Origin: an uncultured Candidatus Saccharibacteria bacterium
Lineage (GTDB): Bacteria; Patescibacteriota; Minisyncoccia; Phycocordibacterales; UBA9973
Reading direction: 5' to 3'
Assembly: GCA_964544225.1 (NCBI GenBank)
Contig: CAZIZK010000001.1
Span: forward strand, 271,477 to 335,476
Length of the DNA stretch: 64,000 nucleotides
The translations under genes were made by a program, and so were the position numbers. The stretch's first letter is position 1. The number at the start of each line of letters is the position of its first letter. Shown here in pieces: positions 1 to 36,283 of the stretch. Under the pieces are notes generated by a model. The model did no database searches, had not been told where the DNA came from, and saw only the letters and a list, made by a program, of their open reading frames with translations.

Positions 1-187
1 CTGAATATCCAGATTTTATAAAAAGTATTAATTACAAAACAAAGGTATATTTCTCAGATTCTACTGTTTTGCCAGAAGAATTATTAAAATTAGAAAAATA
101 CCAAGCTTGTATGATTAAAAATAACAACAAATTTGTTGTATCATTAGATTAATATGGGAAACTTAGGATAAATAATATAATAAATAT

Positions 188-1036
188 ATGGAATTTAAAA
201 ACAATTTTAGTCAAATCAAAAAAGCAGTAGAAAATAACAAAATGGAGACAGAAGATAATTCTCTTAAAAAAGATGATAATTGGCCACAATATGATTCACC
301 CCTATATGAATTTGGGGGAACTTTTGTTAAATCAATCCCTGCTGAGTACACAAACCACTTAGATAAAAAAATCTACGCAACCGTAGAAGAAACAGGAGAG
401 CCCTTTAAGCAATATATAGAGGCTACTCTTTCCAAAAGTAAAAATAAAGAGCTTTATGCCGTGGAGTTTGGAGGGTCTGGATCAAGATTGTTCCATGAAT
501 TTTCAAAGGGGTTTTTTGAAAGGACTGTTGGGGTATGTTTGGGAGATGAAAGATATACAGAAGAAAAGTTTAATGATGCAAAGAAAGGTCACGATGTAGT
601 AGAAGGTGATGTGCTTACTGTAAATGGGAATCCTATATATAAAGATATTGAAAACCGATTAGGTACTTCAAAAGTAGATTTAATTATTTCAAGAATGCAG
701 GGCCCTTTGTACTTTCTAGATAAAAATCCGGCAATCATGAATGCTTTGGTGAAGAAGTGGTACAGCATGCTAAACGAAAATGGTATTCTTTTTGCACAGT
801 TTGAATACATGAAAGAGCACAACCCAAATATGGAGCAAAAATATCAGTCAATAATTGAACCGGAAAATATTCGAGATTCTGAAATTCACGCCCAATACTG
901 GGTAGATGAAATAAAAAAGAGATACAATGGTTTAGTTGATGTTCAATTAGGAAGAGGGACTTTACGTCTACATAAAAATTTTGGTGCCCCTGAGGAAATA
1001 GAAAATATGCCAGACATGTTTGAGAAGAATAAATAA
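188..1036 (+). CDS. Hypothetical protein with a Rossmann-fold SAM-dependent methyltransferase-like core
   Basis: The 282-aa ORF carries motif I-like VEFGGSGS, motif II-like VDLIISR and motif III-like LNENGILF in the expected order and spacing. Its stop lies 1 nt before the start of the next gene, so the two are probably translationally coupled. Confidence 0.45.
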   Translation: MEFKNNFSQIKKAVENNKMETEDNSLKKDDNWPQYDSPLYEFGGTFVKSIPAEYTNHLDKKIYATVEETGEPFKQYIEATLSKSKNKELYAVEFGGSGSRLFHEFSKGFFERTVGVCLGDERYTEEKFNDAKKGHDVVEGDVLTVNGNPIYKDIENRLGTSKVDLIISRMQGPLYFLDKNPAIMNALVKKWYSMLNENGILFAQFEYMKEHNPNMEQKYQSIIEPENIRDSEIHAQYWVDEIKKRYNGLVDVQLGRGTLRLHKNFGAPEEIENMPDMFEKNK

Positions 1037-1037
1037 T

Positions 1038-2753
1038 ATGAACCCTGAAACACGAAACTGCCAGAATTGTAAAACTCCTTTCACTATAGATGGGGATGAT
1101 TTTTCTTTCTATGACAAGATAAAGGTTCCACCACCGACATTCTGCCCCGAGTGCAGGATGGTCAGGCGCCTAATGTGGCGCAATGCTCGTTCGCTCAACA
1201 GGCGCGAATGCGGTATGTGCAACAAGGTGTTAATCAGTATGTACAAGGACGACGGTGTTCCTGTGTACTGTGCAAATTGCTGGAATGGGGGAGGCTGGGA
1301 GCCTATGAGTTATGGGTTCGACTACGATTTTTCCCAGAACTTTTTTATACAACTAAAGGACCTATTCTATAAGGTACCCCGATTTTATTCATATCAATTT
1401 GGCAATTTGGTCAATTCTGAGTATGCGAATTTCTCAAAAGACAATAAGAACGTGTACCTATCCTTTTCAGTTACAGAATGCGAGGATGTAATGTATGTAG
1501 ATACAGTCGATAAATCAAAGAATTCTATCGATGATCTTGCCTGTCAGCGCCTCGATGGATGTTCATGGAATATAAACTGTGAAGGGAACTATAATACTCA
1601 TTATGCTGTTGAATCTCAGAACAATATTGATTCATATTTCATATACGATTGTACCAACTGTTCTAACTGCTACATGTCTTCAAACTTACGTAATCAACAA
1701 TATTATTTTAAGAATCAGAAGTTATCCAGAGAGGATTATTTAGAAGCAATAAAGAGTGTCACCCTTGATACATTTACTGGGATAGAAAATTCAAAGACTG
1801 AATTCAAAGACATGATACAGAATCAGGCAATACACAAATACGCTTTTATTTATTCTGCAGAGAGTGTAAATGGGGATTATATTCACCACGCAAAGAATTT
1901 GAAACATTGTTTTGATTGTAATCAAGCCGAGAACCTTGCTTATAGTGTTCGAGGAATAGAAATAAAAGATTCATACGATATTTCTGGAACAGGTTTTAGT
2001 GCGGAATTAATCTATGAAGCAATGGCGGCGACTGGCAATACGAACTCGTGCTACTTTGCTTATTTGAATTTGTTGGGTTGTCGATCATGTCAGTATTCAT
2101 TGATTTTGAAAAATTGTGCAGATTGTTTTGCTTGTGTTGGCTTAACCAATGCACAGTACTGTATATTTAATAAACAATATACAAAAGAGGAATATTTTGA
2201 AATGGTAGAGAAGATAAAACAACACATGGATGAAATGCCATATGTGGATGAAAAGGGTAGAGTGTTTAAGTATGGTGAATTTTTCCCTTATGACATGTCA
2301 CCATTTGCATACAATGAAGCACAAGTTTTCGAGCTCTTTCCTATTTCAAAAGAGCAAGTAATTGCGAGTGGGTTCAACTGGCGCGATAGGGATGCTCGTG
2401 ATTACAACACGACAATGAATGCAAATGAAATACCAGAAAGTATAAATGATATTAGTGACAATATTACAAGTGAAGTGATAGCTTGCCCTTCAAATGGTAA
2501 CCAAATGACTCAATGCACAACCGCATATAGGATCATGCCAGATGAATTTATCTTTTATAAAAACAAAGGGTTACCTATACCCCGATATTGTCCAAACTGT
2601 AGGCATTATGAACGCCTATGTTACCGCAACACCATGAGGCTTTACCATAGGGAGTGTACGAATGGTTGTGGTAACACTTTCGACACAACTTTCGATCCAG
2701 GAAGGCCCGAGAAGGTGTATTGCGAGAGGTGTTATCAGCAAGAAGTACTGTAG
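1038..2753 (+). CDS. Large cysteine-rich protein with homologous N- and C-terminal zinc-ribbon modules and internal Cys-containing repeats; function unknown
   Basis: The 572-aa ORF starts at the ATG at 1038, directly after the upstream stop. The N-terminal module (FSFYDKIKVPPPTFCPECRMVRRLMWRNARSLNRREC...VYCANCW) is duplicated at the C-terminus (FIFYKNKGLPIPRYCPNCRHYERLCYRNTMRLYHREC...VYCERCY). The middle contains repeated ~22-aa units with CxxC/CxNC motifs. A terminator follows. Confidence 0.55.
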   Translation: MNPETRNCQNCKTPFTIDGDDFSFYDKIKVPPPTFCPECRMVRRLMWRNARSLNRRECGMCNKVLISMYKDDGVPVYCANCWNGGGWEPMSYGFDYDFSQNFFIQLKDLFYKVPRFYSYQFGNLVNSEYANFSKDNKNVYLSFSVTECEDVMYVDTVDKSKNSIDDLACQRLDGCSWNINCEGNYNTHYAVESQNNIDSYFIYDCTNCSNCYMSSNLRNQQYYFKNQKLSREDYLEAIKSVTLDTFTGIENSKTEFKDMIQNQAIHKYAFIYSAESVNGDYIHHAKNLKHCFDCNQAENLAYSVRGIEIKDSYDISGTGFSAELIYEAMAATGNTNSCYFAYLNLLGCRSCQYSLILKNCADCFACVGLTNAQYCIFNKQYTKEEYFEMVEKIKQHMDEMPYVDEKGRVFKYGEFFPYDMSPFAYNEAQVFELFPISKEQVIASGFNWRDRDARDYNTTMNANEIPESINDISDNITSEVIACPSNGNQMTQCTTAYRIMPDEFIFYKNKGLPIPRYCPNCRHYERLCYRNTMRLYHRECTNGCGNTFDTTFDPGRPEKVYCERCYQQEVL

Positions 2754-2762
2754 TTTGTAGTT

Positions 2763-2810
2763 ATCCCCACCAAAAAATGTTAATTTTTTGGTGGGGATTT
2801 TTCTTTATTT
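2763..2810 (+). terminator. Rho-independent terminator
   Basis: Hairpin atccccaccaaaaaa/ttttttggtggggat followed by a T-rich tract, located after the stop at 2753. Confidence 0.6.
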
Positions 2811-2868
2811 TTGGTATTCGAAAATACGCGAGTAGGCAAGGTTTTTTTCAGGAAATTTTATAAAAATA

Positions 2869-2951
2869 TTGACGATTTTAGCGAGACTTTTCATAGTGTT
2901 GTGTTTATGGTTTGTACACTTGCTGGGGGTTCGTGCTCGGGGGTATAATGT
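2869..2951 (+). promoter_or_regulatory. Putative nrdA promoter region
   Basis: TTGACG at 2869-2874 with a 17-bp spacer to CATAGT. Downstream, gctcggggg/ctcccgag forms an imperfect inverted repeat with TATAAT in its loop at 2944-2949, 55-60 bp upstream of the nrdA ATG. Confidence 0.3.
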
Positions 2952-3006
2952 ACTCCCGAGAAAAAGATTTTCACCTATTTATTATTAGCTTTAGTCACAA
3001 ATTGTC

Positions 3007-5682
3007 ATGAGTATAACAATCGCAAAACGCAACGGTTCACGCGAGGCATTTAATGCCGACCGTATTAACAAATCTATCGAAAAGGCCTGCTTTGGCCTTA
3101 CAGATCCTGTATCAAAGGTGACTCAGATCGCCTCTGAGACTCGTCTTACACTGTATGACGGCATTACGACTGACGAGATGGATCAAGCTACCATCAATGC
3201 GGCCCTACAAAACGCTCAAGAGGATTTGGAATTCGACAAGATTGCGACACGATTGTTCCTAAAGACAATATACAAGCAGGTACTAGGTGACTTCGATACT
3301 AAAGAAGAGCTTGCAACAATGCATAAAGGACACTTCAAGCACTATATCCGCCTGGGGGTAGAGCTTGGCCTTTTGGACAAGCGCTTGGACTCACTCTTTG
3401 ACCTTGATGACCTAGGCCGTCACCTAAAGGTAGAACGCGATGAACTGTATAAATACTCTGGTGTGTCTACTATGCGTGACCGTTATCTTATAAAGGACAA
3501 GGAACAGAAGCCACTAGAAACTCCACAATACTTCTGGATGCGTGTGGCCATGGGTATGTCATTAAAGGAAAAGAACCCGACAGAATGGGCTATGAAGTTC
3601 TACGACAAGATGTCACGTCTCGAATACCTATCAGCTGGCTCTACCAATATCGGTGCGGGTACTACACGCCCATCACTTTCTAACTGTTACCTAATGCAGA
3701 TCGAAGACGATATGGCCCACATAGGTAAGACTGTGTCAGATGTATTGATGCTATCAAAGGCTACAGGGGGTATCGGTCTATCAGTTACAAAGCTTCGCGC
3801 AAATGGCTCAGTACTAAAGTCTAACAACACTGTGTCTTCAGGCCCAGTACCATTTATGCATATTATCGACTCTGCTGTGCGTGCTGTTCAGCGCGGTGGC
3901 AAGAAGAAGGGGGCACTATGCTTCTATATGGAGAACTGGCACTTAGACTTCCAAGACTTTATAGACCTGAAGCAGAACGCAGGTGACGACTATCGCCGTA
4001 CTCGTACAGCCAATACTGCTGTATACATATCTGACGAATTCATGATGCGTGTAAAGGAGGACAAGGATTGGTACCTATTCGACCCAAATGAAGTTCCAGA
4101 CTTGGTGGAGCTATACGGCCAAGCCTTTTCAAAGCGTTACAACGAATACTGCGATATGGCTGAAAAGGGTGAACTAAAGATGTGGAAGAAGCTACCAGCT
4201 CGCCAACAATACAAGAACATCCTCGTATCACTTCAGACAACATCACACCCATGGCTAACATGGAAGGACACTATCAATGTACGTGCACTGAACAACAATA
4301 CTGGTACTATCCACGCATCGAACCTATGTACTGAAGTGACACTTCCTCAGAACAAGGAAAATATTGCTGTATGTAACTTGGTATCTATTAACTTACCTCA
4401 ACACGTAGTAGGCAAGCAGATCGATTGGGCAAGGCTCGAGGATTCAGCACGTCTTGCTGTGCGCCAGCTCGATAACCTGATCGATGTGAACAAGTTGCCA
4501 ATAGCTGAAGCTATAAAGGCTGACACAGAGAACCGCGCAATAGGGTTGGGCCTCATGGGACTGTCAGATACATTTGAACGCATGGGTTACTCATACGAAG
4601 ATACAGAAGCTCATGACCTAACTGACAAAGTTTTCGAATTTATTTCATACATGGCAATAGACGAGAGTGCAAAGCTCGCATCTGAACGTGGGGCATACAA
4701 GAACTTCCAAGGTTCTGGCTGGTCAAAGGGTATGGTACCTATCGACACATTGAAAATGCTCGAGGAGGGCAGATCCGAGAAGTTGTCAGTAGTTACAGGT
4801 AGTGTAAAGATGATCCCCGAGCTTGATTGGGAGGAGCTTCGCAAGAAGGTTCGCAAAGGTGTTCGCAATGCCACAGTTATGGCTATCGCGCCAAATGCTA
4901 ACATTGGTTTGGTTGCTGGTACTTCCCCAGGTATAGACCCACGCTTTGCTCAGATGTTCTCTCGTAACAAGATCTCTGGTAAATACCTCGAAGTTAACCC
5001 AAACTTGGTTCACGATTTGAAAGCTCTTGGCTTATGGGAGAGTAACAGGGAAGAGCTGCTAATGAGTCACGGCAGTCTCGAGCATATGGACAATATTCCA
5101 GAAAATATAAAGAAGATTTACAAGACATCATTTATAACTTCACCATATGCATTTATCGAAGTTGCCGCTCGTGCACAGAAGTGGGTGGATCAGGCAATAT
5201 CTCGTAACATGTATCTAGACGTGCAGAATGTGAACCAGGTTATCGACATATATAGCAATGCTTGGGAGAAGGGCCTAAAGACCACATACTACCTACATGT
5301 AAAGCCAAAGCACACAGCTGAACAGTCAACCACAAAGGTAAACAAGGGGCAAGCGATGGGCAAGATCGGTTTCGCCGCTATATTCAACAAACAGCCAGCA
5401 GTTACTGCAACAGTTGCAACGCCAGAGCCTGAGGTAAAGAAAGTAGAGCAAGTTGTCCTACCCGACCAGAAGCCCGAAGTAGTGGTAGTAGATGAAGTTG
5501 TAGAAGAAGTTGTAATAAAAAAAGAAGAGCCACAAACAGTTGCACAGACTACAACATCGCCAGTTGCAAGCCCGGTCAGTGCACAGCCAGCAGAAGTTGC
5601 GAAGCGTAGAATGCAAGAAGAATTAGTTATCCACGGGCCAGTCGATCCAATGGATGCACTATTGTGTGAAGGGTGCCAATAA
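3007..5682 (+). CDS. nrdA: Ribonucleotide reductase class Ia large subunit (ATP-cone N-terminus; C-terminal low-complexity linker plus CxxC tail)
   Basis: N-terminal ATP-cone (KRNGSREAFNADRINKSI). Class I catalytic motifs SNCYLMQIEDD, SNLCTEV and CNLVSINL. C-terminal CEGCQ redox pair. The beta subunit gene is adjacent. Confidence 0.92.
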   Translation: MSITIAKRNGSREAFNADRINKSIEKACFGLTDPVSKVTQIASETRLTLYDGITTDEMDQATINAALQNAQEDLEFDKIATRLFLKTIYKQVLGDFDTKEELATMHKGHFKHYIRLGVELGLLDKRLDSLFDLDDLGRHLKVERDELYKYSGVSTMRDRYLIKDKEQKPLETPQYFWMRVAMGMSLKEKNPTEWAMKFYDKMSRLEYLSAGSTNIGAGTTRPSLSNCYLMQIEDDMAHIGKTVSDVLMLSKATGGIGLSVTKLRANGSVLKSNNTVSSGPVPFMHIIDSAVRAVQRGGKKKGALCFYMENWHLDFQDFIDLKQNAGDDYRRTRTANTAVYISDEFMMRVKEDKDWYLFDPNEVPDLVELYGQAFSKRYNEYCDMAEKGELKMWKKLPARQQYKNILVSLQTTSHPWLTWKDTINVRALNNNTGTIHASNLCTEVTLPQNKENIAVCNLVSINLPQHVVGKQIDWARLEDSARLAVRQLDNLIDVNKLPIAEAIKADTENRAIGLGLMGLSDTFERMGYSYEDTEAHDLTDKVFEFISYMAIDESAKLASERGAYKNFQGSGWSKGMVPIDTLKMLEEGRSEKLSVVTGSVKMIPELDWEELRKKVRKGVRNATVMAIAPNANIGLVAGTSPGIDPRFAQMFSRNKISGKYLEVNPNLVHDLKALGLWESNREELLMSHGSLEHMDNIPENIKKIYKTSFITSPYAFIEVAARAQKWVDQAISRNMYLDVQNVNQVIDIYSNAWEKGLKTTYYLHVKPKHTAEQSTTKVNKGQAMGKIGFAAIFNKQPAVTATVATPEPEVKKVEQVVLPDQKPEVVVVDEVVEEVVIKKEEPQTVAQTTTSPVASPVSAQPAEVAKRRMQEELVIHGPVDPMDALLCEGCQ

Positions 5683-27284: not shown

Positions 27285-27465
27285 ATAAGTCATTAGAGGC
27301 TATCACCTCTAGAGCTTGCAATCTTGCAGGCAGGCTTTGGGAAGAAAGCCGTAAGGGCCGTAGAACCCACGAAATGAGAGCCCGAGAGGGAAACAAGGTG
27401 GTACCGCGAGAAGCTCGTCCTTGTATAACAATTTGTATTGTTGTACGTGGACGAGTTTTTTTTAT
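27285..27465 (+). promoter_or_regulatory. T-box riboswitch leader (Ile specifier) upstream of ileS
   Basis: Conserved T-box sequence aaacaaGGTGGTACCGCGag at 27391-27410. Terminator stem ctcgtcc...ggacgag plus a U8 run at 27414-27463. The small Stem-I hairpin tagaggctATCAcctcta presents AUC followed by a purine. Confidence 0.75.
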
Positions 27466-27484
27466 TAACCCAAATTATTTTATT

Positions 27485-30400
27485 ATGAACACACAAAAAG
27501 GAAATCAAGACCCCGAAAGAACTAACGATTCACTAAGTGAATCTACTTCTAACGGGGTAGGTAAATCTACAAACGCAAAAAGGGAAGAGAGTGTATTGGA
27601 GTTTTGGAAAGAGAATGACACTTTCAACAAGTCTCTGACAAAGGAGGCTCCAAAGGGAACTTACGTTTTCTACGATGGGCCACCATTTGCCACTGGCTTG
27701 CCACACTACGGCCACATACTAGGTAGTACTGCAAAGGATGTAATAGGGCGCTATCAGACAATGCGTGGCTTCCACGTGCCTAGGCGCTGGGGTTGGGATT
27801 GTCATGGTCTACCTATCGAGAATATTGTCGAGAAGGAACTAGGCATATCAGGGCGTAAAGCTATCGAGGAATTCGGCGTAGATAAATTCGCCGAGCATGC
27901 ACGCAGTGCTGTTTTGAAATATGTAGGCGAATGGAAGAAGACGGTGGACCGCATGGGTCGCTGGGTAGACTTCGACAACTCTTACAAGACCATGGACAAT
28001 AGCTTTATCGAGAGTGTCTGGTGGGCACTGGGGCAGATGAATGATAAAGAACTACTTTACGAGGGTGTGCGTGTATTGGCATACTGTCCACGTTGTGAGA
28101 CTCCAATAGCCAATAGTGAAATTGCTATGGATAACAGTTATAAAGATATAACTGATATTTCTGTTTATGTAAAGTTCAAAGTTGTTGGGCAGGATCATAC
28201 ATATCTACTAGCTTGGACTACAACACCGTGGACTTTGCCGGGTAACACTGCAATAGCGGTAAATAAAGATATTGATTATGTTTATGTGAAGACTAAAAAT
28301 AATGGTGGTGGGCACGACCATCTAATAGTGGCAAAGAACCTTTTTGATAAATTGAAAGATAAATTTACAGATCCGGAGATATTGAAGGAAGTGAAGGGGA
28401 GTGAATTGGTAGGCATGCAATACGAACCGGTGTTTGATTATTATAAAGATGTGGATATGCCAAACAAGGAAAATATTTGGCGTGTATGGCATGCAGATTT
28501 TGTAACAGATGACGCCGGTACAGGTATTGCCCACGAGGCCCCAGCATTTGGTGAGGATGATATGAACCTGGCAAAGGAACACAATATTCCATTTATAAGG
28601 CACGTAGAACCGAACGGGTTCTTTACCAAAGAGGTTACCGACTTCCCCGATGTAAAGGCCAAGCCAAAGGAGGACCCACAATCAACCGATGTATTGGTGA
28701 TAAAATATTTAGCACACAAAGGCTCACTATTTGCAAAGGAAAAGATCGTGCACTCATACCCACACTGCTATCGCTGCGATACGCCACTTCTGTATTACGC
28801 ATTGCCTTCATGGTTCATAAATGTGCAGAAGGTAAAGGCCGATGCATTGAAGAATGCCGAGGCTATGAATTGGGTCCCAAGCCATCTGAAAGAGGGTAGG
28901 TTCAAGCATATTATGGAGGGGGCGCCGGATTGGACAATATCTCGCAATCGATTTTGGGCGAGCCCTTTGCCATTCTGGAAGTCCGAGGGTGGTAAATTGA
29001 TGATAGTAAACTCTCTTGATGACCTGAAGAGCAAGGTAAAGAGGAGTGGAAACAGGTATTTCATAGTGCGTCATGGTGAAGCACAACACAATGTAGATAA
29101 TAGAATAAGTTATAAAGACGAGGCAGGCGACTTGCTTACTGACAAGGGCATAGCGCAGGCGGTAGATGTGGCTGATAAATTAAAACACTTTAATGTTACA
29201 AAAGTTTTTGCATCACGATTTGCCCGTACAAACCAAACAGCAGAAATAATTGTAGACAGTATCGGTGTAGCAAAAGACAGTATAAAGCACGATGAAAGAC
29301 TGATAGAGTTGAATCCAGGAGTTTATGATGGCCAAACATGGGAGAAGAGAAATGATTGGGCGTATAATCAACCGAGTTACTATCATGCAGCACCCGAGGG
29401 TGGCGAGAGTCATCAGGATGCAAAGAATAGATTTGGAGATTTTATTTACGAATTAGAAAGTAAGTATCAGAATGAAAATATATTGATCGTTACTCATGGT
29501 ATTGGCCTTGAAGTTTTGCCAGCAGTAGCATTGGCTGCTGATGAGGTAACATCATTCAATATATATAGGGACAACCCACACAACCCATGCACATTGATTG
29601 ATCTAGATTTCTTTCCACTACCACATAATGCACACTACGAGCTTGATTTACACAGGCCATATATTGACGCGATAAAGTTAGTAGACCATGAGGGTACCGA
29701 GTATACTCGTGTTCCTGAAGTTATCGACTGTTGGTTCGAGTCGGGTTCGATGCCTTTTGCCCAGGACCACTATCCATTTGAAAGGCCAAATTGGGAGAAG
29801 GAGAACTTCCCAGCAGGGTTCGTGGCTGAATATATTGCCCAGACACGTACATGGTTCTACTACACACATATAATATCGAGCACTTTGTTTGGTCATGCAC
29901 CATTCCAGAATGTGGTAACCACAGGAACCATACTTGCCGAAGATGGTAGCAAGATGAGTAAGTCAAAGAATAATTATCCAGACCCACAAATACTTTTTGA
30001 TAAGTATGGGGTAGATGCATTGCGCTTCTACCTTATGTCTTGCCCTGTAATGAAGGGGGAGGATGTAGCCTTTACCGAGAAGACTGTGCAAGAGATATCG
30101 AGCAAGATAGTAGGCAGATTGGAAAATGTTACAACATTTTATGAACTTTATAGAGATGTAAAACTAGAAACTAGCAACAAGAACCTAAAACCTAATAATG
30201 TTTTGGACAAGTGGATCTTGTCACGTCTTGCTGAGTTGGTTGTGGAAGTAACCGACGGCATGGAGGCATATGATATGGTTCTAGCCACACGACCTTTTGA
30301 ATTGTTTATTGAAGATTTGTCTACATGGTACCTACGCCGATCACGAGATAGACTGAAGGATGGTGACACTGAAGCCTTGGCTACTTTGTACCACGTACTG

Positions 30401-30997
30401 AAAACTACAGTTACACTCATAGCACCATTTACACCATTTATAGCCGAGGATATCTGGCAGAGGTTGAAGCTTGGTAATGATGTGGAGAGTGTGCACCTAG
30501 CAGACTGGCCCGCAGCAGATGGCGAGGCAGATAAAGTTGTATTGGAAGAGATGCAAGAAGTGCGCGACATAGTAACAGTAGGTTTGCAAATGAGACAGAA
30601 AGCGGGTATCAAAGTTCGCCAGCCACTTTCAAAAATAATTGTTACAAAATCAAATCTTACTTCTGAATACAAAGAAATATTGAAAGATGAATTGAATGTA
30701 AAGGATGTAGTAGTGGGTGATGAACTAGGTTTGGATACCGAGATAACTCCTGATCTAAAGCGCGAGGGTGATTATCGCGAGCTTGTTCGTGCTGTCCAAG
30801 ATGGCAGGAAGAACATGGGTCTAATACCTGCCGATGTGGTGATTGTAACTATATCTGTAAATGCACAAGATTTAGTAGAAGAATTTATAACCGAGTTCAA
30901 AAAGACAGTGGGTGCAGGTGCTGTAAACTTTGCCGATAATGATGGAGACGAGGTAAAGGTAGGGGATATGAAGGTTAATATAAAGATTGAAAAATAA
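27485..30997 (+). CDS. ileS: Isoleucyl-tRNA synthetase (type 2) with an inserted histidine-phosphatase (PGAM-like) domain
   Basis: HIGH motif (PHYGHIL), CP1 editing-domain motifs (TGIAHEAPAFGEDD, WTISRNRFWASPLPFW) and KMSKS. A ~195-aa insert between MIVNSLDDLKSKVK and ELDLHRPYID carries RHGEAQHN and LIVTHGIGLEV. The real start is at 27485; the upstream in-frame stretch is the T-box leader. Confidence 0.93.
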   Translation: MNTQKGNQDPERTNDSLSESTSNGVGKSTNAKREESVLEFWKENDTFNKSLTKEAPKGTYVFYDGPPFATGLPHYGHILGSTAKDVIGRYQTMRGFHVPRRWGWDCHGLPIENIVEKELGISGRKAIEEFGVDKFAEHARSAVLKYVGEWKKTVDRMGRWVDFDNSYKTMDNSFIESVWWALGQMNDKELLYEGVRVLAYCPRCETPIANSEIAMDNSYKDITDISVYVKFKVVGQDHTYLLAWTTTPWTLPGNTAIAVNKDIDYVYVKTKNNGGGHDHLIVAKNLFDKLKDKFTDPEILKEVKGSELVGMQYEPVFDYYKDVDMPNKENIWRVWHADFVTDDAGTGIAHEAPAFGEDDMNLAKEHNIPFIRHVEPNGFFTKEVTDFPDVKAKPKEDPQSTDVLVIKYLAHKGSLFAKEKIVHSYPHCYRCDTPLLYYALPSWFINVQKVKADALKNAEAMNWVPSHLKEGRFKHIMEGAPDWTISRNRFWASPLPFWKSEGGKLMIVNSLDDLKSKVKRSGNRYFIVRHGEAQHNVDNRISYKDEAGDLLTDKGIAQAVDVADKLKHFNVTKVFASRFARTNQTAEIIVDSIGVAKDSIKHDERLIELNPGVYDGQTWEKRNDWAYNQPSYYHAAPEGGESHQDAKNRFGDFIYELESKYQNENILIVTHGIGLEVLPAVALAADEVTSFNIYRDNPHNPCTLIDLDFFPLPHNAHYELDLHRPYIDAIKLVDHEGTEYTRVPEVIDCWFESGSMPFAQDHYPFERPNWEKENFPAGFVAEYIAQTRTWFYYTHIISSTLFGHAPFQNVVTTGTILAEDGSKMSKSKNNYPDPQILFDKYGVDALRFYLMSCPVMKGEDVAFTEKTVQEISSKIVGRLENVTTFYELYRDVKLETSNKNLKPNNVLDKWILSRLAELVVEVTDGMEAYDMVLATRPFELFIEDLSTWYLRRSRDRLKDGDTEALATLYHVLKTTVTLIAPFTPFIAEDIWQRLKLGNDVESVHLADWPAADGEADKVVLEEMQEVRDIVTVGLQMRQKAGIKVRQPLSKIIVTKSNLTSEYKEILKDELNVKDVVVGDELGLDTEITPDLKREGDYRELVRAVQDGRKNMGLIPADVVIVTISVNAQDLVEEFITEFKKTVGAGAVNFADNDGDEVKVGDMKVNIKIEK

Positions 30998-34381: not shown

Positions 34382-36283
34382 ATGGCAGAATCTAAGAACC
34401 CACTGCATAGAATCGAAGATATAAAGCGTAAACTCTACGAAAGAGGCTTTTCTTCCGAGTTGCACCACAAGGAGGGTGTATTGCATGCGGTACCTCATGA
34501 TGTACCAAATACTTGGGAGGGGGCCGAAGGTAATACACTAAAAAGCACTCATGTATCTATTGCAAAGAAGTTCTTCATCGGGGCGGTACTGTTCTTCATC
34601 GGGGCGATATTCTTCGGTGTATATATGTATATGAGCGGGACTCGCACAGTGTCCAGTGACAATATCGAGATCAATATATTAGGTAATGCCTTTACCGAAG
34701 GTGGCGAGGAGTTGCCACTACAGATAGAGATAATCAATCACAACAATGCCGCACTCGAACTTGCAAATATGGTTATCGAATATCCAAAAGGTGCTTCGAC
34801 CTCGGCTGTGGAAACACCTGACTCACTAATACGTCTACCAAAAGAAAATATTGGAACTATCCCCGCAGGTGGCAGGGTGGAGAAGGCGAAGAAGGTCACA
34901 TTGTATGGCGACCAGAACACGGTCCGCAATGTAAAGGTTATCCTGGAGTACCACCCAGCTGGCTCGAATGCAATATTTACAAAAGAAAAGATTTATCCAG
35001 TTACTATTAACTCTTCACCGATTACACTATCTGTTGATGGTCCAATACAGACAACTTCCGGACAGGAGATCACCCTGAATATTACAGCCACATTAAATAC
35101 TACATTACCAGAGGGCGACACCATGTTGTCAGTAGCATATCCAAATGGATTCAAATTTACTAATGCAGTGCCACAGCCAGTGTTCGGAAGTTCAGTGTGG
35201 AACCTAAATGCTCTTGCAGTAGGCAAGCCTATATCTATTGCCATAAAGGGTACTATGAATGGCCAGAACGGTGACGAGCAAGCCTTTCATATATATGTAG
35301 GTACTACAAAAGGCATGAACAAATCCGTTGTCGATGTTGTTTACAATTCACTACTACACACTGTGTCACTACAGAAGCCTTTCTTGCAGGCAACGATACT
35401 TCTCGACGGGGCGAACCTGGATACTTATTCTACATCGGGCGGGCGTATGATACGTGGACAAGTATTGTGGGCCAACAATTTGCAATCAACCATTTTAGAT
35501 GGCGAAGTGAGTGTTACATTTAGTGGTAATATTTTTGATAAGGAGTCTGTGGTACCTGAAGAAGGCTTCTATGACTCTGTAAATAATCGTATTGTATGGA
35601 ATAGGAATACTACTCCAGAATTTGCGACGCTAGCACCAGGGGCAACAGGGTATCTTAATTTTGAATTCACCCCTGCATCTGTTATAGGTTCGAACCAGAC
35701 TATTCGTGATCCCCAAGTAGTGCTCGATGTTAGTATCAAAGGGCGCGAATCTACATCGGGATCAACAATATCTGAAATCAACAATTTCGCAAAGAAGATA
35801 GTCCGCCTTGCATCAGACTTTCAGCTAGTAGCACGTGCAAATTATGCAAGTGGGGAACTGCCTCCAAAAGCCGAGAAGGATACCGTATACACTATATACT
35901 GGACACTATCGAACTCTATCAACCCTGTATCACAGGCCGAGGCCAGGGCAGAACTGCCTGTGTATATGGACTGGGTGGGTATGGCCAATGGTAGCAAAGA
36001 GGCCGTAACATATGATAAACTAACTCGTCAGATAGTATGGAATATAGGTACAGTCAGGCAGAACACTGGGTTCGGGTCCAACAACAGGGAAGCCGCTTTT
36101 AATATAAAGCTTCGCCCATCTGTATCCCAAGTAGGTAGCGTGCCAAATATTATAAAAGAGGTCACTCTGACTGGTATTGACTCGTTCTCCAACAGTGGAC
36201 TACGATCTGTAAAGCAGTCACTTAGTACCAGACTGGAAAATGATTCCAATTTCCAAAACGGCGATGAAAAGGTAATAAGATAA
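34382..36283 (+). CDS. Membrane-anchored large extracellular beta-rich protein (hypothetical surface protein)
   Basis: Short cytoplasmic N-terminus, one transmembrane helix (FFIGAVLFFIGAIFFGVYMYM) and ~550 aa of repetitive Thr/Ser/Asn-rich beta-strand-like sequence. Confidence 0.55.
   Translation: MAESKNPLHRIEDIKRKLYERGFSSELHHKEGVLHAVPHDVPNTWEGAEGNTLKSTHVSIAKKFFIGAVLFFIGAIFFGVYMYMSGTRTVSSDNIEINILGNAFTEGGEELPLQIEIINHNNAALELANMVIEYPKGASTSAVETPDSLIRLPKENIGTIPAGGRVEKAKKVTLYGDQNTVRNVKVILEYHPAGSNAIFTKEKIYPVTINSSPITLSVDGPIQTTSGQEITLNITATLNTTLPEGDTMLSVAYPNGFKFTNAVPQPVFGSSVWNLNALAVGKPISIAIKGTMNGQNGDEQAFHIYVGTTKGMNKSVVDVVYNSLLHTVSLQKPFLQATILLDGANLDTYSTSGGRMIRGQVLWANNLQSTILDGEVSVTFSGNIFDKESVVPEEGFYDSVNNRIVWNRNTTPEFATLAPGATGYLNFEFTPASVIGSNQTIRDPQVVLDVSIKGRESTSGSTISEINNFAKKIVRLASDFQLVARANYASGELPPKAEKDTVYTIYWTLSNSINPVSQAEARAELPVYMDWVGMANGSKEAVTYDKLTRQIVWNIGTVRQNTGFGSNNREAAFNIKLRPSVSQVGSVPNIIKEVTLTGIDSFSNSGLRSVKQSLSTRLENDSNFQNGDEKVIR

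Follow-up and report, generated by a model that had tools for sequence, protein, structure and literature searches.

Short cysteine fingers of the zf_Tbcl and zf_Tbcl_2 families (PF13451 and PF23477, the latter equivalent to TIGR04272) are found in small stand-alone proteins or as C-terminal tags, and the proteins that carry them are functionally uncharacterised. The CxxC-x17-CxxC (TIGR04272-type) domain of small proteins from Methanosarcina mazei binds zinc, as measured by inductively coupled plasma mass spectrometry (PMC12704099). ORF2, a cysteine-rich open reading frame (ORF) near the start of a 64,000-nucleotide stretch from an uncultured Candidatus Saccharibacteria bacterium (contig CAZIZK010000001.1, positions 271,477 to 335,476; hereafter the window), resembles these proteins in that each of its ends pairs a CxxC...CxxC finger (F-x-F-Y-x-K...P-x-P-x-x-C-P-x-C-R) with a CxxC-x16/17-CxxC finger, but differs from them in placing two such tandems around a 390-residue repeat core. 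The initial annotation described ORF2 as a 572-residue protein (it has 571 residues) forming a two-gene module with the methyltransferase-like ORF1 immediately upstream. The notable object at this locus is not such a module; it is a previously undescribed, conserved, multi-copy protein family of the Paceibacteria, and ORF2 can be assigned to this paralogous family with high confidence.

Patescibacteria have tiny genomes in which a large share of the genes lacks an assigned function, and among these genes the family is conspicuous, with orthologues 53-67% identical across genera, at least five retained groups and, in some genomes, nine copies or more. With only some 600-1,000 genes per genome, arrays of up to ten copies represent a considerable outlay, and in many lineages members of the family alternate with the genes of the grpE-dnaK-dnaJ cluster, which is usually invariant, and with those of unusual soluble ATPases. 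Neither Pfam nor the PDB offers a significant match to the central fold, and a soluble protein with predicted zinc sites and candidate partners is a tractable target, so that a study of the family could reveal cell biology specific to the Parcubacteria lineage. As the methyltransferase-like neighbour is incidental, it is the paralogues and the ATPases that deserve attention as partners.

A multi-copy protein family of the Paceibacteria

A search of 5.8 billion proteins identified at least 5,992 homologues of ORF2. The top 120 are 53-67% identical to it over 99-100% of its length; none of these has a precomputed Pfam domain, every named one is a hypothetical protein, and Patescibacteria, Nomurabacteria and Paceibacterota are given as the sources. 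When representatives at 50% identity were scanned exhaustively with HMMER, 3,530 clusters matched with E ≤ 1e-3, and 1,306 of them reached E ≤ 1e-30. At the nucleotide level, at least 557 stretches encoding relatives were found among one-genome-per-species contigs with a search pattern built on the (I/Y)FN(K/x)QY(S/T)KEEY motif, in which the duplicated central module of the protein ends. From this genomic search 79 loci were kept, and 83 were fetched in all for the analysis of family members and their neighbours.

The 79 loci are labelled as Nomura-, Giovannoni-, Lipton- or Staskawiczbacteria, Paceibacterota or Minisyncoccia, or carry generic or doubtful taxon labels. One locus with the family is labelled Burkholderiales (L021, JAMPXW010000002.1) and another Bacteroidales (L063, JAVHRJ010000560.1), and both are probably mis-binned Patescibacteria contigs; for the former this is proposed because its gene order, with a TraD-like ATPase gene and dnaJ, is typical of Paceibacteria. 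The family is thus restricted to Patescibacteria of the Paceibacteria/Parcubacteria type.

ORF calling combined with a family hidden Markov model (HMM) detected 199 members in the 83 loci, a slight overcount in that a few loci overlap. The largest array holds ten copies (L052), and two metagenome-assembled genomes carry at least nine copies each. A public contig that is identical to the window and reaches 3 kb further upstream (L001) encodes a 558-residue paralogue, referred to as A (L001 879-2555), which is 38% identical to ORF2 over the full length, whilst five paralogues stand side by side in L002, the locus of a 67% identical orthologue of ORF2; the full-length identity of ORF2 to five paralogues in these two loci is 28-39%. 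Members were assigned to groups by their best match among five reference paralogues, single-linkage clustering having merged the groups, and this yielded at least five conserved groups, with ORF2 in group B. For the five references, orthologues in other genomes are 52-68% identical, compared with 28-39% between paralogues of one genome, from which it follows that the duplications are ancient and that every copy has been kept. Retention of this kind would be expected of non-redundant subunits and not of fast-evolving cargo.

The inability of the initial annotation to place ORF2 in any family holds up, with no characterised family among the core matches. The core has no significant match in Pfam, NCBIfam, PADLOC or PHROGs, apart from a partial match of the A paralogue, whose residues 285-374, within the second repeat module, match the uncharacterised family phrog_15341 (E 1.5e-6). 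PDB sequences gave no match over the repeat region, even when searched with the family profile A3, and literature searches on Patescibacteria, Parcubacteria and the related zinc-finger families turned up no account of these proteins. A phage or defence-island origin was considered and rejected, there being no match of ORF1 or ORF2 in PADLOC or PHROG and a single, partial relative in a search of 2.9 million viral contigs.

Domain architecture and predicted zinc sites

ORF2 is made up of two homologous double zinc modules at its ends, two repeat modules in its centre and an acidic α/β domain (Table 1). The protein as a whole contains 33 cysteines and has an isoelectric point (pI) of 5.1, with mildly basic ends (pI 8.1-8.4) and an acidic centre (pI 4.2-5.5). 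The N-terminal module comprises site 1 (C8/C11/C36/C39), which is zf_Tbcl-like and is followed by the basic helix CRMVRRLMWRNARSLNRREC, and site 2 (C58/C61/C78/C81), which is zf_Tbcl_2-like with CxxC-x16-CxxC spacing. Their C-terminal counterparts are site 3 (C483/C493/C518/C521) and site 4 (C540/C544/C562/C565), the latter spaced C540xxxC544-x17-C562xxC565; the cysteines were grouped into sites on the basis of the domain matches. Homology of the two ends, which had been read from the sequence in the initial annotation, is borne out by a profile self-alignment of 28 orthologues in hhalign, where residues 11-83 align to residues 493-567 with 97.7% probability (E 2e-12), and by BLASTP, in which the N-terminus of one paralogue matches the C-terminus of another down to E 8e-11.

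All 16 terminal cysteines, eight per end, are 99-100% conserved in alignments A1 and A3. In Pfam, ORF2 itself matches zf_Tbcl_2 at residues 539-569 (E 0.007, 16.5 bits against a cut-off of 27) and does not match zf_Tbcl, and paralogues reach 24.1 and 19.7 bits. Among 55 diverse paralogues, zf_Tbcl matches were obtained in 19 and zf_Tbcl_2 matches in 15 (E < 1, best 1.8e-6), and membership of ORF2 in these families is probably distant and not formal. Since the paralogues match zf_Tbcl and zf_Tbcl_2, and since a TIGR04272-type domain is known to bind zinc, we infer that ORF2 has four structural Cys4 zinc sites. Searching the PDB with the A3 profile also returned a LIM-like match at residues 518-570 (E 3.6e-4), and Foldseek against BFVD returned zinc-ribbon fragments only. 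The LIM domains of CRP1 and CRP2 share the local CxxC...CxxC spacing, but the match spans only C518 to C565, that is the second half of site 3 together with site 4, ORF2 lacks the histidine ligand pattern and the two-residue linker of LIM domains, and Pfam LIM matches are found in two of the 55 paralogues (E 0.0085).

A metal-cluster protein was among the options offered in the initial annotation, and the spacing of the cysteines bears on this. With its 33 cysteines, ORF2 would then be an iron-sulphur or other redox metal-cluster protein, such as an electron carrier or redox sensor, with the central CxxCxxC as ligands. That motif (C205/C208/C211) is conserved at 85-98% in diverse paralogues, where the only other broadly conserved central cysteines are C366 (93%) and C375 (82%), and in group B the residues C360/C363/C366/C375 form a CxxCxxC-x8-C arrangement. 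Against this, the 16 best-conserved cysteines are arranged as four CxxC...CxxC pairs matching those of zinc-finger families, conservation of C360 and C363 drops to 31-33% across diverse paralogues, and the A paralogue of the window's own genome lacks C205 and C208. ORF2 contains neither CxxCxxCxxxCP nor CxxxCxxC, has no ferredoxin or radical S-adenosylmethionine (SAM) signature, and matches no iron-sulphur family in Pfam or NCBIfam. The conserved spacing fits zinc fingers and not iron-sulphur motifs, and a redox cluster is very unlikely.

Between the zinc modules, the initial annotation had noted cysteine-bearing repeats of about 22 residues. Repeats are indeed present and are conserved in homologues, but their period is 12 residues and they are organised in two copies of a module of about 145 residues. 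In the hhalign self-alignment of the same 28 orthologues, residues 99-242 align to residues 252-394 with 96.5% probability (E 8e-10), and profile autocorrelation picks up the 12-residue period (z = 8.1-13.2 for module 1, about 6 for module 2) together with its harmonics at 24 and 36. In register, the consensus of the 12-mer is [Y/F/L/W]-x7-[K/E/N]-[N/D]-x-[Y/F], with about nine repeats per module. Module 1 begins with a helix, which is followed by the repeats (residues ~117-224, with the C205/C208/C211 motif at their end), the sequence NxQYxFxNxxLSxE(D/E)Y and a helical hairpin, whilst module 2 closes with NCADCFACVGLTNAQYCIFNKQYTKEEY and a helix. The acidic α/β domain contains the motifs MPY, YGEFFP and P-Y-N-E, of which YGEFFP...YNE is invariant; taken singly, M397, Y412, G413, E414, F415, F416, P417, Y425, N426, E427 and W448 vary hardly or not at all.

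An AlphaFold model built from a 148-sequence alignment, which included the A group, has a mean predicted local distance difference test score (pLDDT) of 88.9 and a predicted template modelling score of 0.90; an alignment of 28 close orthologues gave a pLDDT of 56 (about 25 in the core), so it is the wider alignment that produced the confident model. In it, both modules have helical caps and a short predicted strand once per 12 residues, and the strands of module 1 lie at residues 157, 169, 176, 188, 200 and 212 with pLDDT values of 77-93. The repeat region is therefore predicted to be solenoid-like.

Left-handed β-helix proteins such as LpxA, γ-carbonic anhydrase and Vat are likewise built of short regular repeats that contribute one strand each, with a stacking of residues that are small or polar (Cys, Asn, Ser), and the weak matches of Foldseek against the PDB are all left-handed β-helix enzymes (best E 2.0, TM-score ≤ 0.1). 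ORF2 differs from hexapeptide-repeat proteins in having a period of 12 and not 6 or 18, in lacking a Hexapep match in Pfam and in lacking acyltransferase motifs, and it differs from the β-helix enzymes in that the family is cytoplasmic and its ends are predicted to be zinc-bound. Beetle antifreeze protein has a cysteine-rich coil of 12 residues, equal to the period of ORF2.

A simple hydropathy test detected no signal peptide or transmembrane segment in ORF2, the maximum over 19 residues being 1.03. Its N-terminal 30 residues, whose hydropathy averages −0.9, are polar and already include a zinc-site cysteine at position 8, and a cytoplasmic location is likely. The secreted or adhesin role that had been offered as one option is unlikely in view of these features and of the four predicted Cys4 sites.

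Gene neighbourhood and candidate functions

Type IV coupling proteins (TraD, VirD4, TrwB) and the FtsK/HerA translocases are P-loop ATPases, and the ATPases encoded beside members of the ORF2 family belong to the same superfamily and have intact Walker A and B motifs. They differ from coupling proteins in being soluble, as 30 of 34 lack a transmembrane segment, and in lying in the grpE-dnaK-dnaJ cluster and not in a conjugation or secretion locus; ORF2 itself resembles none of the known type IV substrates or relaxases. These ATPases come in two conserved sizes (for example L004 18072-20186 and L021 5834-7303, with 32 others in cluster 1). They score 44-51 bits on the NCBIfam models for TraD, VirD4 and CedD, whose cut-offs are 250-650, and because these scores are far below every curated cut-off, the proteins are, as judged from sequence, a distinct soluble branch of the TraD/VirD4-like superfamily. 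The type of about 700 residues carries a zf_Tbcl_2/TIGR04272 finger that scores above the cut-offs (50.5 and 51.5 bits), and when other domains of the family were sought within the ATPases, this zinc finger alone was common to both. The ATPases also match phrog_5156, an uncharacterised family, with E 1e-61.

All neighbouring ORFs were clustered across the loci, and a gene was counted when it lay no more than two genes from a family member. The first part of the recurrent order is rpsI, grpE, A, B, a PaaX-like regulator on the opposite strand and dnaK. After dnaK come the ATPase of about 700 residues, further paralogues, rsmE on the opposite strand, a second TraD/VirD4-like ATPase of about 490 residues, dnaJ and another paralogue. 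TraD-like ATPases satisfy the distance in 19 of the 83 loci, grpE, dnaJ and the PaaX-like regulator in 10 loci each, and dnaK in 8 (16 if it may stand anywhere in the locus). The genes are often co-oriented and are spaced as in operons, with gaps to the family member of at most 18 nt for grpE (10 of 10) and at most 43 nt for dnaJ (5 of 5), and a median of 23.5 nt for the TraD-like ATPases. Typically the B group comes directly after the A group behind grpE, as in L004, L006, L009 and L018; in the genome of the window the A-B pair has been relocated and two genes have been inserted between A and B.

The position of VirD4/TraD-like ATPases beside these genes in 19 loci raises the question of whether the family consists of exported cargo, namely effectors or surface proteins of episymbionts that the neighbouring ATPases would deliver. 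Patescibacteria are mostly host-attached, and tandem multi-copy arrays are effector-like. However, the membrane anchor that characterises true coupling proteins is missing from most of the ATPases, the loci showed no further genes for type IV secretion, and the identity of orthologues across genera together with the retention of the groups is the opposite of what is seen in fast-evolving effectors. The predicted Cys4 sites and the lack of a signal peptide also point to the cytoplasm, and export as cargo is given only a slim chance.

The association with chaperone genes admits a different function, in which the family would act as zinc-dependent co-chaperones, as holdases or as obligate clients of Hsp70, and the link to the ATPases would be secondary. 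Group B lies between grpE and dnaK in L004, L006, L009, L017 and L018, with gaps of at most 18 nt, and other paralogues directly follow dnaJ. DnaJ itself binds substrate via Cys4 zinc centres. This explanation is nevertheless distinctly unlikely, as neither sequence nor profile comparison links ORF2 to DnaJ, Hsp33 or any further chaperone family, gene order is the sole evidence, and no chaperone gene lies near ORF2 in the window.

The best explanation as a whole, which is advanced tentatively and may well prove wrong, is that the family forms a zinc-stabilised cytoplasmic scaffold that cooperates with the Hsp70 system and the ATPases. The two ends, which are mildly basic (pI ~8), would serve as binding modules whose shape is maintained by about four structural Zn2+ ions, with the two acidic repeat modules acting as a rigid spacer between them. 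The conserved, non-redundant paralogues would assemble into a hetero-oligomeric scaffold or adaptor, which would be co-expressed with the GrpE-DnaK-DnaJ system and could present a macromolecular ligand, either protein or nucleic acid, to the soluble, hexameric-type TraD/VirD4-like ATPases. The mechanistic part of this proposal is doubtful. In its most ambitious version, which is unlikely, the paralogues, the two soluble ATPase types and GrpE-DnaK-DnaJ would constitute an unrecognised, Paceibacteria-specific cytoplasmic machine in which a zinc-clamped, hetero-oligomeric repeat scaffold supplies a hexameric translocase with protein or nucleic acid; were this true, the machine would account for more than 1% of the genes in genomes of roughly 1 Mb and be central to the biology of Paceibacteria.

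Several observations weigh against the scaffold proposal. None of the homologues is a characterised protein that would support a function, and both the hetero-oligomers and the interaction with the ATPases are deduced solely from gene order. For its zinc fingers, ORF2 itself scores below the Pfam thresholds, and the grouping of the zinc sites and the term solenoid depend on the secondary-structure string, the periodicity and the weak Foldseek β-helix matches (E ≥ 2). Many members adjoin unrelated housekeeping genes, including uvrABC, ruvX, dnaG-rpoD and, here, ribonucleotide reductase, and a search of the 64-kb window found no TraD-like ATPase, dnaK or grpE and no further paralogue. In small, dense genomes, synteny can also be conserved in the absence of functional coupling.

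ORF1, the transcription unit and other genes of the window

The ORF1/ORF2 junction has the form TAA-T-ATG, with a spacer of 1 nt. A mechanical list of ORFs extends the start of ORF2 back to a TTG at position 1020, and the ATG was taken here as the start codon. On L001, the 197-residue gene whose 3' end opens the window spans 2559-3152; it begins 3 nt after the gene of the A paralogue and is followed 35 nt later by ORF1, and tblastn matches its residues 149-197 to window positions 3-149 at 100%, placing its last 49 codons at the start of the window. Strong terminator-like hairpins are found only at L001 801-830 and 5763-5798, bracketing all four genes; the second corresponds to window positions 2763-2798 and has a stem containing G and C. 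The close spacing and the terminator proposed for a two-gene operon are thus confirmed, but, as strong terminators lie only outside the four genes, the transcription unit most likely comprises the A paralogue, the 197-residue gene, ORF1 and ORF2.

Table 1. Features of the ORF1-ORF2 region in window coordinates
Feature	Position	Strand	Basis and remarks
3' end of 197-residue gene	1..152	+	Second gene of the four-gene unit
ORF1, 282 residues	188..1036	+	ATG start; ORF listing and sequence
ORF1 methyltransferase-like core, residues ~88-210	449..817	+	Motifs conserved in alignment A4
ORF2, 571 residues	1038..2753	+	ATG at 1038, stop at 2751-2753
ORF2 N-terminal double zinc module (predicted), residues 1-95	1038..1322	+	Cysteine conservation; domain matches of paralogues; pLDDT 92-95
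ORF2 central module 1, residues 96-262	1323..1823	+	hhalign; periodicity; 12-mer register; AlphaFold model
ORF2 central module 2, residues 263-399	1824..2234	+	Second copy of the 12-residue repeat module
ORF2 acidic α/β domain, residues 400-480	2235..2477	+	pI 4.2; pLDDT 94-97; conserved residues
ORF2 C-terminal double zinc module (predicted), residues 481-571	2478..2750	+	Homology to the N-terminal module
Intrinsic terminator, 16-bp stem ATCCCCACCAAAAAAT / ATTTTTTGGTGGGGAT, then T run	2763..2808	+	Terminator scan of L001; sequence

ORF1 belongs to a rare family of Patescibacteria, with 31 homologues, 33-95% identical, none of which carries a Pfam domain. Motifs like those of a Rossmann methyltransferase, of which I-III had been reported initially, are conserved throughout this family: motif I reads AVEFGGSGS in ORF1 and AVEFGG(P/S)GS across the homologues, motif II GVCLGD and GVCLxD, motif III GDVL and GD(I/V)L, motif IV KVDLIISRM and KVDLIISRMxGPL, and motif V NENGILFAQF and LNENG(I/L)(L/M)F(A/I)QF. 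In alignment A4, E93, G95, G96, G115, D120, H135, K162, I166, S168, R169, W191 and F202 are invariant or nearly so. As in class I SAM methyltransferases and spermidine synthases, the hydrophobic strands and motifs I-V follow in the order of the class I core, and D120 in GVCLxD would be the acidic residue at the end of strand 2 that binds the SAM ribose in such enzymes. The candidate glycine loop, of GGxG type, resembles that of spermidine synthase, but EFGG(P/S)GS departs from the E/DxGxGxG loop of class I methyltransferases, the glycine spacing of E93-F-G95-G96-x-G-S being non-canonical; the residues were assigned to methyltransferase motifs by eye, from the sequence. Searches of Pfam and NCBIfam with ORF1 gave no methyltransferase match, and no Pfam match at all below E 0.1, and sequence and profile searches of the PDB found no relative. 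It is only among the 32 sequences of its homologues that sub-threshold Pfam matches arise, four of them to Methyltransf_23 (best E 3.5e-4), three to Spermine_synth and two to Methyltransf_31. The label methyltransferase-like is reasonable but unproven, since it depends on the motifs and these weak profile matches. The core is flanked by conserved N-terminal and C-terminal regions, both without a database match; the former accounts for about 90 residues ahead of motif I, in agreement with the extension of about 95 residues noted initially.

In the arrangement proposed at the outset, ORF1 would be a SAM-dependent methyltransferase and ORF2 its dedicated substrate or partner. The 1-nt spacing, the common transcription unit and the conserved motifs are compatible with such a pairing, and homologues of ORF1 adjoin family members in two of 45 further ORF1-family loci (L084 and L093) and, to judge from the size of the neighbours, on the P0123 contig, where unannotated neighbours of 580 and 557 residues are family-like. 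Taken together, the ORF1 family stands beside a member of the ORF2 family in about 4 of ~48 contexts, and, of the 36 among the 45 further loci that have at least 700 nt of flank, one has a family member nearby. The two families are nevertheless of very different size, with 31 homologues against at least 5,992, and an ORF1 HMM run on the 83 family loci found the window's own locus and none in the other 82. Furthermore, the adjacent cases are mostly the closest relatives of ORF1 (46-57% identity), so that the pairing is explained by inherited local gene order, and a significant methyltransferase profile match is lacking. A dedicated partnership is accordingly most improbable, and the pattern of occurrence marks ORF1 as a gene inserted locally between A and B, which were ancestrally neighbours, and not as a family-wide partner. 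In L101 (3090-4418) and L121 (643-1520), two adjacent segments on the same strand match the ORF1-family HMM, which may be tandem copies or a frameshifted gene.

The 197-residue gene has a 64%-identical orthologue within the paralogue cluster of L002. Its sequence LIHGKDKTGSSLFSITVA resembles a degenerate P-loop, and a Sigma54_activ_2 match is weak (E 0.01). A relationship of the protein to the P-loop domain of the TraD-like ATPases, in degenerate form, was considered and dropped for lack of evidence, as hhalign, with shallow alignments, found none.

Elsewhere in the window, a 633-residue ORF at 34382-36283 (+) has no Pfam match at E ≤ 1e-5 and lies outside the ORF2 family. Downstream of the terminator, the large subunit of a class I ribonucleotide reductase (891 residues, 3007-5682, +) carries a long, low-complexity C-terminal extension rich in Pro, Glu, Val and Lys, which ends in CEGCQ. 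Encoded at 27374-30997 (+) is a class I aminoacyl-tRNA synthetase of 1207 residues, which its domains mark as isoleucyl-type. Its catalytic domain is split at residues 563-724 by a complete His_Phos_1 domain (E 5.9e-30), which occupies the usual position of the editing insertion.

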